In this document: in pieces, positions 32,471 to 32,701 of the stretch
Layout: every line of letters starts with the position of its first letter
Position numbering within the stretch: position 1 is the stretch's first letter
DNA from: a virus
Lineage: Duplodnaviria; Caudoviricetes
DNA length: 50,776 bases
IMG/VR virus record: IMGVR_UViG_3300011115_000265
Coordinates: 1-50,776 of that record
Strand: one strand, 5' to 3'
Translations under genes and position numbers: made by a program
Notes under the pieces: generated by a model
Databases searched by the model: none
Seen by the model: the letters and a program-made list of their open reading frames with translations, nothing else
What the model was told of the DNA's origin: nothing

Positions 32471-32499
32471 ATGACAGATTACTTGACTTATGGTATAAT
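32471..32499 (+). promoter_or_regulatory. Sigma70 promoter of pqqA copy 1
   Basis: ATGACA-17 nt-TATAAT with extended TG. Confidence 0.7.
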
Positions 32500-32543
32500 A
32501 TATGCATAGTACAAATTCGTACTACTTATTTAGGAGTTTTACC

Positions 32544-32615
32544 ATGTGGACTAAACCAGCAGCTACAGAAATGCGTTTTGGCTTTGAAGTTACTATGTAT
32601 ATTATGAACAAATAG
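32544..32615 (+). CDS. pqqA: Pyrroloquinoline quinone precursor peptide PqqA, copy 1 ([23 protein letters not shown])
   Basis: 23 aa, MW.KP...RFGFEVTMY signature with E-x3-Y; AGGAG RBS; own promoter and terminator. Confidence 0.95.
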   Translation: [23 protein letters not shown]

Positions 32616-32665
32616 GGTCAAATCGTCATAGAGATATCTACAAGGCTCTACAGCGAGTTTTAGAT

Positions 32666-32701
32666 AAAAAGAAAGGCCACGATATTCAGTGGCCTTTTTT
32701 A
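32666..32701. terminator. Bidirectional rho-independent terminator at the convergence of the two gene blocks
   Basis: aaaggccac-gatattca-gtggccttt with A-run before and T-run after. Confidence 0.85.

Follow-up and report, generated by a model that had tools for sequence, protein, structure and literature searches.

Two stand-alone pqqA cassettes in a complete tailed phage likely to infect a Methylophilaceae methylotroph

Introduction

The cofactor pyrroloquinoline quinone (PQQ) is made from the peptide PqqA, which PqqD presents to PqqE, a radical S-adenosylmethionine (SAM) enzyme. In the available text of Coutinho et al. (2020, Microbiome 8:163) and of a study of Hyphomicrobium, a glutamate and a tyrosine of the peptide are cross-linked, this pair becomes PQQ, and one peptide is spent per PQQ. 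The Hyphomicrobium study, in its available part, also describes a strain with several pqqA copies, of which the highly expressed ones peak when PQQ synthesis is fastest. PqqA has been met in viruses too: the accessible text of Coutinho et al. (2020) reports PqqA together with a methanol dehydrogenase in the Lake Baikal viral population VP_266 and reads both as auxiliary metabolic genes, and the accessible part of a 2026 paper on reservoir sediment places pqqA, pqqE and pqqD among virus-encoded genes. Here we describe two pqqA genes in the IMG/VR virus record IMGVR_UViG_3300011115_000265, whose 50,776 bp were analysed as a whole and are called the window below.

As far as the available description of VP_266 goes, the two cases are alike in their viral PqqA, in a predicted methylotroph host and in being read as supporting methanol oxidation. 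They differ, by description and not by sequence, in that VP_266 encodes a methanol dehydrogenase and the present phage none; the available text on VP_266 concerns one gene and describes no cassette structure, duplication or occurrence in cultured phages. A sequence-only reading of the window had warned that viral pqqA might already have been noted in freshwater viromes, and the Lake Baikal report justifies that caution, viral pqqA as such being already known. What is added here is the duplication of the gene, its wide yet overlooked presence in cultured methylophages and an upstream element shared with host genes.

The peptides described here share with bacterial PqqA (PF08042, TIGR02107), including the orphan copies of Methylophilaceae, both the length of 23 residues and the motif W-x-K-P...E-x3-Y. 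Methylophilaceae host copies are likewise mostly stand-alone, with a ribosome-binding site, an upstream palindrome, a 5' hairpin and a terminator. Unlike them, the copies here lie in a phage without pqqB-E, phage promoters are closer to the sigma-70 consensus, the viral upstream element lies nearer the start codon (about 85-95 versus 115-135 nt) and is a half-site in this window, and the serine at position 6 of copy 2 occurs in no sampled host. Intact PqqA peptides of 23-24 residues are also encoded by the cultured methylophages Venkman, P19250A, MEP301, MEP401/402 and Melnitz, the Venkman peptide being identical to that of copy 2; these phages belong to other lineages, namely a genus-level cluster of Venkman and P19250A, Zobellviridae and Kyanoviridae. 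The available main texts on Venkman, MEP301, MEP401/402 and Melnitz, taken apart from their supplements, mention no PQQ genes in the phages, and the available text on Melnitz names PQQ solely as a medium supplement; in the OM43 medium as published, PQQ is present at 1 nM. Full-text literature searches that combined pqqA with phage, viral or OM43 terms, and that covered neither supplements nor the P19250A paper, returned no further report.

Results and discussion

Two intact pqqA genes with their own expression signals

The sequence-only reading had proposed that a 23-codon open reading frame (ORF) directly after the endolysin is a phage pqqA. Profile searches, the check suggested with it, bear this out: copy 1 scores 42.4 bits on Pfam PF08042 (E 6.4e-11, cut-off 21.1, profile positions 1-19 of 19) and 40.4 bits on the NCBIfam equivalog TIGR02107 (cut-off 20, profile positions 1-21 of 21). 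Applied to the entire record, the PqqA model gave two matches, the second at 45380-45451 on the plus strand; the earlier account of a single gene is therefore right about copy 1 and had missed a second, intact copy. Both lie above the curated cut-offs, the same PF08042 search matches none of 14 control genomes, and the E-x3-Y motif is intact in both as Glu15-Val-Thr-Met-Tyr19. Each is a short stand-alone ORF of 23 codons with its own translation signals, and both are true members of the PqqA family. A search of PDB sequences with the peptide gave nothing at E up to 10.

The cassette of copy 1 comprises the following features, which include the promoter-like site, AGGAG and hairpin terminator of the earlier reading, all located at 32046-32704:

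32046-32459, plus strand: endolysin (VanY / Peptidase_M15_4; Pfam PF02557 42.7 bits, PF13539 39.8 bits), last gene of the rightward structural and lysis block
32453-32474, plus strand: upstream motif AATTTAATGATTTTACCGATGA, a half-site version of a palindromic element (expectation-maximisation (EM) motif search, 17.7 bits)
32471-32499, plus strand: sigma-70-type promoter-like site ATGACA-17-TGgTATAAT (11 of 12 positions, extended -10)
32507-32524, plus strand: 6-bp hairpin at the predicted 5' end of the transcript (RNA fold)
32532-32536, plus strand: AGGAG ribosome-binding site, 7 nt before the ATG (read from the sequence)
32544-32615, plus strand: pqqA copy 1, 23 codons and stop (ATG at 32544, TAG at 32613-32615; PF08042 and TIGR02107)
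32669-32704, both strands: G+C-rich hairpin of 9-12 bp flanked by A and T runs (terminator scan, RNA fold)

The start was placed at 32544 because a 37-codon frame from 32502 begins only 3 nt past the -10 hexamer and has no ribosome-binding site. The stop codon of the endolysin overlaps the upstream motif. The promoter-like site is the best of 11 in a region of 1.2 kb, which yields 5.1 +/- 2.2 when shuffled; sites of this kind are thus frequent in DNA so rich in AT. The terminator scan called the hairpin after copy 1 on the minus strand, and RNA folding also forms it on the plus strand (z = -2.9 in a 200-nt transcript; -11.3 kcal/mol, followed by a T run). Because both strands give the hairpin, it is likely to be a two-way terminator between the convergent rightward (structural and lysis) and leftward (replication) blocks.

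Copy 2 runs antisense to its neighbours, the minus-strand genes of the replication module, and its upstream motif overlaps the start codon of a divergent gene (44962-45294, minus strand). Its signals are as follows:

45287-45308, plus strand: upstream motif TTATTCATGATTTTCTCTATTT (EM motif search, 18.9 bits)
45306-45334, plus strand: promoter-like site TTTACT-17-TGgTATAAT (10 of 12 positions, extended -10)
45341-45360, plus strand: 7-bp hairpin at the predicted 5' end of the transcript (RNA fold)
45369-45373, plus strand: AAGGA ribosome-binding site, 6 nt before the ATG (read from the sequence)
45380-45451, plus strand: pqqA copy 2, 23 codons and stop (PF08042 41.1 bits)

The 17-mer CTTATGGTATAATATAT around the -10 hexamer is identical at the two copies (32487-32503 and 45322-45338) and has no further match in the window even when up to three mismatches are allowed. 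The genes themselves differ at 12 of 72 nucleotides, 10 of them at third codon positions. Counted by codon, nine changes are synonymous and two conservative (A/S and I/V), a ratio that points to selection on the peptide and to two copies that are old. The same pattern extends to 100 unique viral pqqA sequences, in which mean entropy is 0.89 at codon position 3, 0.31 at position 1 and 0.22 at position 2.

Genomic setting

CheckV puts the completeness of the record at 100%, and profile searches across it identify a large terminase, a portal, a major head protein, a ribonucleotide reductase, a DnaB-type helicase and an HNH endonuclease; an internal virion protein of 1,344 residues carries a transglycosylase domain. 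The record thus represents a complete, 50.8-kb tailed phage, and its likely host, as the type of peptide suggests, is a Methylophilaceae methylotroph. Searches with tyrosine integrase and serine recombinase models gave nothing in the complete genome, tRNA genes are absent from the record, and the phage is apparently lytic. Phage genes stand on both sides of each pqqA: copy 1 lies between the endolysin and the HNH and ribonucleotide reductase genes, copy 2 inside the module on the helicase/primase side. The gene has the marks of an auxiliary metabolic gene, being located inside a bona fide phage genome and closely homologous to a host metabolic gene.

The earlier claim of a stand-alone cassette also stands, as models of pqqB, pqqC, PqqD and pqqE have no match across the 50,776 bp. 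The remaining pathway genes being absent from the phage genome, processing of the peptide would fall to the host. A model search of the whole record for a PQQ-dependent alcohol dehydrogenase (methanol dehydrogenase) likewise returned none.

The nearest GenBank relative is MW202796, an uncultured phage from a spring (terminase 74% and capsid 80% identical), followed far behind by an Alcaligenes phage (45% and 54%, respectively). Judged by terminase or capsid, none of the cultured methylophages named above is a near relative of the phage described here. A listing of sequencing runs points to one viral metagenome as the probable origin of the record; the remaining runs, from freshwater and other metagenomes, have shares of at most 0.20, and a single metatranscriptome has 0.06, shares from which we conclude nothing on habitat or expression.

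Candidate hosts

Samples at the peptide level were drawn by scanning GTDB genomes and IMG/VR with degenerate DNA patterns, so that totals are lower bounds and the samples are possibly biased. The pattern for the phage-type peptide matches at least 120 stretches in GTDB genomes. Nearly all titles among the matches listed are of Methylophilus, Methylotenera, Methylobacillus, Methylovorus, Novimethylophilus, Candidatus Methylopumilus or unclassified Methylophilaceae, Burkholderiales or Betaproteobacteria, in agreement with the Methylophilaceae type that had been assigned to the peptide at first sight. The commonest host peptide, found in 59 of 131 host copies among the matches listed, is one residue away from copy 1.

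All four small Methylophilaceae genomes examined (1.2-1.9 Mb) contain pqqC and pqqE above cut-off and have two to six PqqA matches each, on different contigs; with so many matches per small genome, demand for the peptide looks high even in streamlined hosts. Most host copies are orphans, only 14 of the 131 listed having a same-strand ORF of 305-311 residues, the size of PqqB, within 200 nt downstream. Among the viral matches listed, 0 of 120 have such an ORF. The G+C content of the phage, 36%, fits low-GC Methylophilaceae better than it fits Methylophilus or Methylotenera loci, which is weak evidence, and neither G+C content nor peptide type tells Methylopumilus, OM43 and other low-GC members apart as host genus.

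Occurrence in other phages and viral contigs

A tblastn search with copy 1 against 50,697 phage records, in which the match table gives one place per record, found 12 records. Ten of these are true phages: Venkman, P19250A, MEP301, MEP401, MEP402, four Melnitz isolates and the spring podovirus MW202481. MEP431-434 and HIM624-A, whose names stand in the taxonomy, are not among the matching records, whether or not the collection includes them. In all six of the ten that were read, an ORF of 23-24 codons with its ribosome-binding site is intact, and most of the cultured methylophage genes read have an ATGATT-type upstream motif. GenBank annotation at pqqA in the cultured methylophages shows either no feature or an ORF on the wrong strand. 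The other two records, CAKLQF020000010 and CAKLQH020000055 (L253), are labelled Acinetobacter phage MD-2021a and were rejected as host contigs carrying a chromosomal ppk-pqqABCDE region (ppk, polyphosphate kinase). These two aside, the hosts written in the matching records are strains of Methylophilales/Methylophilaceae only, and none of the 50,697 records holds a pqqA from phages of Pseudomonas, Acinetobacter, Klebsiella or other PQQ-using hosts. Orphan pqqA therefore recurs across unrelated phages of one host family.

A general PqqA pattern matches at least 120 IMG/VR contigs. Among the 120 matches listed, all have an ORF of 23-25 codons and 97 share one 11-residue string. Homologues of ORFs from host pqq operon neighbourhoods were found in none of the 123 viral loci examined. 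Fragments related to the present phage keep the places of the gene, one (L042) at the site of copy 1 and two (L099 and L010) at that of copy 2, and a further fragment (L090) has pqqA at a third place. A single copy is present in each of ten other viral records, of which two are at least 98% complete.

As a separate observation, contig L019, a relative of this phage with an endolysin 79% identical, encodes after that endolysin a strongly diverged PqqA, MWKKPVATEIRLGMEITAYVMNR, which scores 34.5 bits on PF08042; L046 has it as well.

Proposed role of the phage peptides

We think it probable that host RNA polymerase transcribes the phage cassettes and that their peptides sustain PQQ for methanol dehydrogenase while the phage replicates. 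The strong sigma-70-type promoter of each small cassette would lead to transcription by the host enzyme, and the 23-residue product could then enter the host pathway, with PqqD and PqqE cross-linking Glu15 and Tyr19 and PqqB and PqqC acting afterwards. As one peptide is spent per PQQ, extra peptide might keep up or raise the supply of PQQ for the PQQ-dependent methanol dehydrogenase of the host, and energy and carbon flow would in turn be held up for phage replication. Transcription, translation, processing into PQQ and benefit to the phage are what we infer from the genes. Purifying selection on the peptide and the finding of pqqC and pqqE in candidate hosts agree with this role.

An analogy is offered by cyanophage psbA (D1), where the phage supplies the fastest-consumed part of a host energy pathway and the host provides the rest. 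It is an analogy only: protein and pathway are unrelated, and expression in infection has been shown for psbA, whereas the present case is known from genes alone.

Several points weigh against this role. PQQ is a reusable cofactor, and the value of new synthesis within a single infection cycle is not obvious. MW202796 is not among the 12 records matching pqqA, which implies that the gene is dispensable for this phage type. Neither the terminator scan nor RNA folding finds a terminator after copy 2, and the promoter region of that copy is not enriched, with 7 promoter-like sites against 6.5 +/- 3.2 in shuffles. The family of the host, Methylophilaceae, is deduced from the type of the peptide only. 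Lastly, some of the residues that are invariant in the viral set (W2, K4, P5, E9, G13, E15, T17 and Y19) were fixed by the search pattern, so that their invariance is not independent evidence.

It is also conceivable, though unlikely, that PQQ or the peptide serves another purpose, such as protection from oxidative stress, the handling of a metal (lanthanide or iron) or another PQQ-dependent dehydrogenase. The lack of a methanol dehydrogenase gene in the window would agree with this, as would a possible likeness of the upstream palindrome to the box of a metal regulator. Against it, the gene is confined, among the phage records searched and leaving aside the two mislabelled contigs, to phages of obligate or specialised methylotrophs, and methanol dehydrogenase is paired with pqqA in the Lake Baikal viruses as described in the available text of Coutinho et al. 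(2020).

An upstream element shared with host genes

The regions 41-140 nt upstream of the start codons were searched by EM for motifs, separately for hosts and viruses. The host motif, TGAAAATCATgAG...TTTTc, is present in 102 of 126 non-redundant loci, and the viral motif, TaATGATTTTC..TAt, in 95 of 114, including both copies in the window; their log-likelihoods are 954 and 583, respectively, against about 72 for shuffled sequences. The two motifs are one near-palindrome (ATGA-WWW-TCAT) in opposite directions. In its strict form the palindrome lies upstream in 75 of the 121 host loci and 26 of the 109 viral ones, with 1 and 0 in downstream controls; both window copies fail this strict test and have half-sites only. 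The window contains the string ATGATTTT at only two places, 85 and 87 nt ahead of the respective pqqA starts, against 6.3 +/- 2.7 occurrences in shuffles counted on both strands.

Exact matches to the host-type element ATGAAAATCATNAG in four host genomes lie 100-135 nt upstream of a pqqA start in 8 of 10 cases, and one-mismatch matches elsewhere in these genomes fall mostly within ORFs. On these grounds the element looks like a putative operator that is nearly private to pqqA. The palindrome may resemble the box of a metal regulator (Fur-like); this reading was rejected, matches away from pqqA in the four host genomes lying mostly inside ORFs at up to one mismatch, so that at this stringency the element marks no broad regulon. 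We note separately that the ATGAAAATCATNAG element, with its core ATGA-WWW-TCAT, stands upstream of most Methylophilaceae and phage pqqA genes (host loci L126-L245 and L254-L283).

A short hairpin, variable in sequence, lies between the -10 hexamer and the ribosome-binding site in the two window copies as in many others. Its mean z is about -1.2 in the viral and the host set alike, and z is below -1 in 55% and 53% of loci, respectively. The two sets differ in their other signals: a best promoter-like site of at least 10 of 12 positions is found in 15 of 119 viral versus 1 of 127 host upstream regions, and a terminator-like hairpin comes after 51 of the 109 viral copies and 104 of the 121 host ones.

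Such a putative operator raises the question of whether the cassettes act through their DNA or RNA by titrating a host regulator of PQQ, or through a decoy peptide that ties up PqqD or PqqE, the host pathway being re-tuned in either case. A relative of the host-type element does precede 95 of 114 viral copies and both window copies, most exact host matches precede pqqA, and ATGATTTT is found in the window before pqqA only. We nevertheless regard titration or a decoy as quite improbable, because selection on the peptide is strong and E-x3-Y is intact, neither of which a pure DNA decoy would need, because the window holds half-sites that fail the full palindrome test, and because the regulator is itself hypothetical. 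A candidate can be named by eye: in three loci (L260, L261 and L269) of genomes labelled Candidatus Methylopumilus (G001 and G002), an orphan pqqA directly follows a gene whose product ends in a Fis-type, helix-turn-helix-like tail (GRNTLTRKIQEL) of the sort found in NtrC-family activators, and this gene might encode a regulator of the upstream element.

Relation of viral and host genes

The 100 unique viral and 113 unique host pqqA genes have no nucleotide sequence in common, and for 79 of the 100 viral genes the nearest neighbour is another viral gene. The G+C content at third codon positions (GC3) is 0.37 in viral and 0.50 in host genes, partly as a composition effect of the hosts sampled. 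Copy 2 and Venkman share Ser6, a residue present in 28 of the 100 viral sequences and in none of the 113 from hosts. Given a host sample richer in G+C, and as only the matches listed were compared, this contrast between viral and host genes is no more than suggestive.

These comparisons bear on whether the phage acquired its copies recently from host DNA as useless passengers (morons), or whether the contigs are host contamination. Capture would be easy, in that host genomes hold many orphan copies of the same architecture, and pqqA was not matched in MW202796, the nearest relative in GenBank. Passenger DNA is nonetheless poorly supported and, we think, very unlikely: viral genes share no nucleotide sequence with host genes and mostly group with each other, they differ from host genes in GC3, with the reservation just given, and in Ser6, their positions are kept in the related fragments L042, L099 and L010, and the gene is present in cultured, plaque-purified phages. 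Host contamination was rejected on the phage hallmark genes, the lack of host pqq-operon homologues in the viral loci and the distinctness of the viral genes.

Temperate phages often carry a piece of the gene into which they integrate, and the pqqA sequence might on that account be an attachment site for integration into host pqqA; this is poorly supported and hardly credible for a complete genome with no tyrosine integrase or serine recombinase and with two full-length, diverged copies that have their own promoters and ribosome-binding sites and share no identical nucleotide stretch with the sampled host genes.

Wider implications

A broader proposal, which we put forward tentatively, is that pqqA is a hallmark of Methylophilaceae phages. 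Several unrelated lineages would have gained and retained it independently, in the present phage as two copies, capturing it together with the host operator and giving it stronger promoters, so that it would answer to the host regulator, and it would have been overlooked because it falls below the length used in gene calling. If so, the consumable step that limits methanol oxidation in streamlined methylotrophs would be the supply of PqqA, in a system that is directly testable with several phages and hosts in culture.

Methanol in coastal seas and lakes is consumed by abundant Methylophilaceae, among them OM43 and LD28/Methylopumilus. If it is true that their phages routinely supply the PQQ precursor, then infection by viruses helps to maintain a key step in the turnover of one-carbon compounds, and PqqA would be among the smallest auxiliary metabolic genes in use. 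Surveys based on called genes will undercount pqqA, because GenBank annotation of the cultured methylophages studied here either lacks the gene or calls it wrongly. The gene may also provide a cheap marker for placing uncultured phages in this host family.

Other features of the genome

A three-gene module occurs twice near the two ends of the record (634-4147 and 46290-50395, both on the minus strand) and encodes proteins of 260/263, 291/307 and 524/505 residues, the last with an amidoligase-like domain. Both sets have counterparts on the related contig L090, at 41-55% identity, and the two modules would be adjacent if the genome were circularly permuted.

At 7678-7938 (plus strand) lies a gene for an 86-residue DUF6321 protein (83 bits) that is 84-90% identical in six pqqA-bearing IMG/VR loci (L021, L029, L048, L060, L101 and L107). 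The capsid is only 41-43% identical in five of these six, the capsid match of L021 being a 57-residue fragment, and the DUF6321 gene seems to move from phage to phage in this group, or else to be unusually strongly constrained.

Finally, a calcineurin-like metallophosphoesterase is encoded at 36427-37197 (minus strand) and is 60-76% identical to proteins of at least nine pqqA-bearing contigs; in the available text of the MEP401 paper, the calcineurin-like metallophosphoesterase family is a common gene among OM43 phage genomes.

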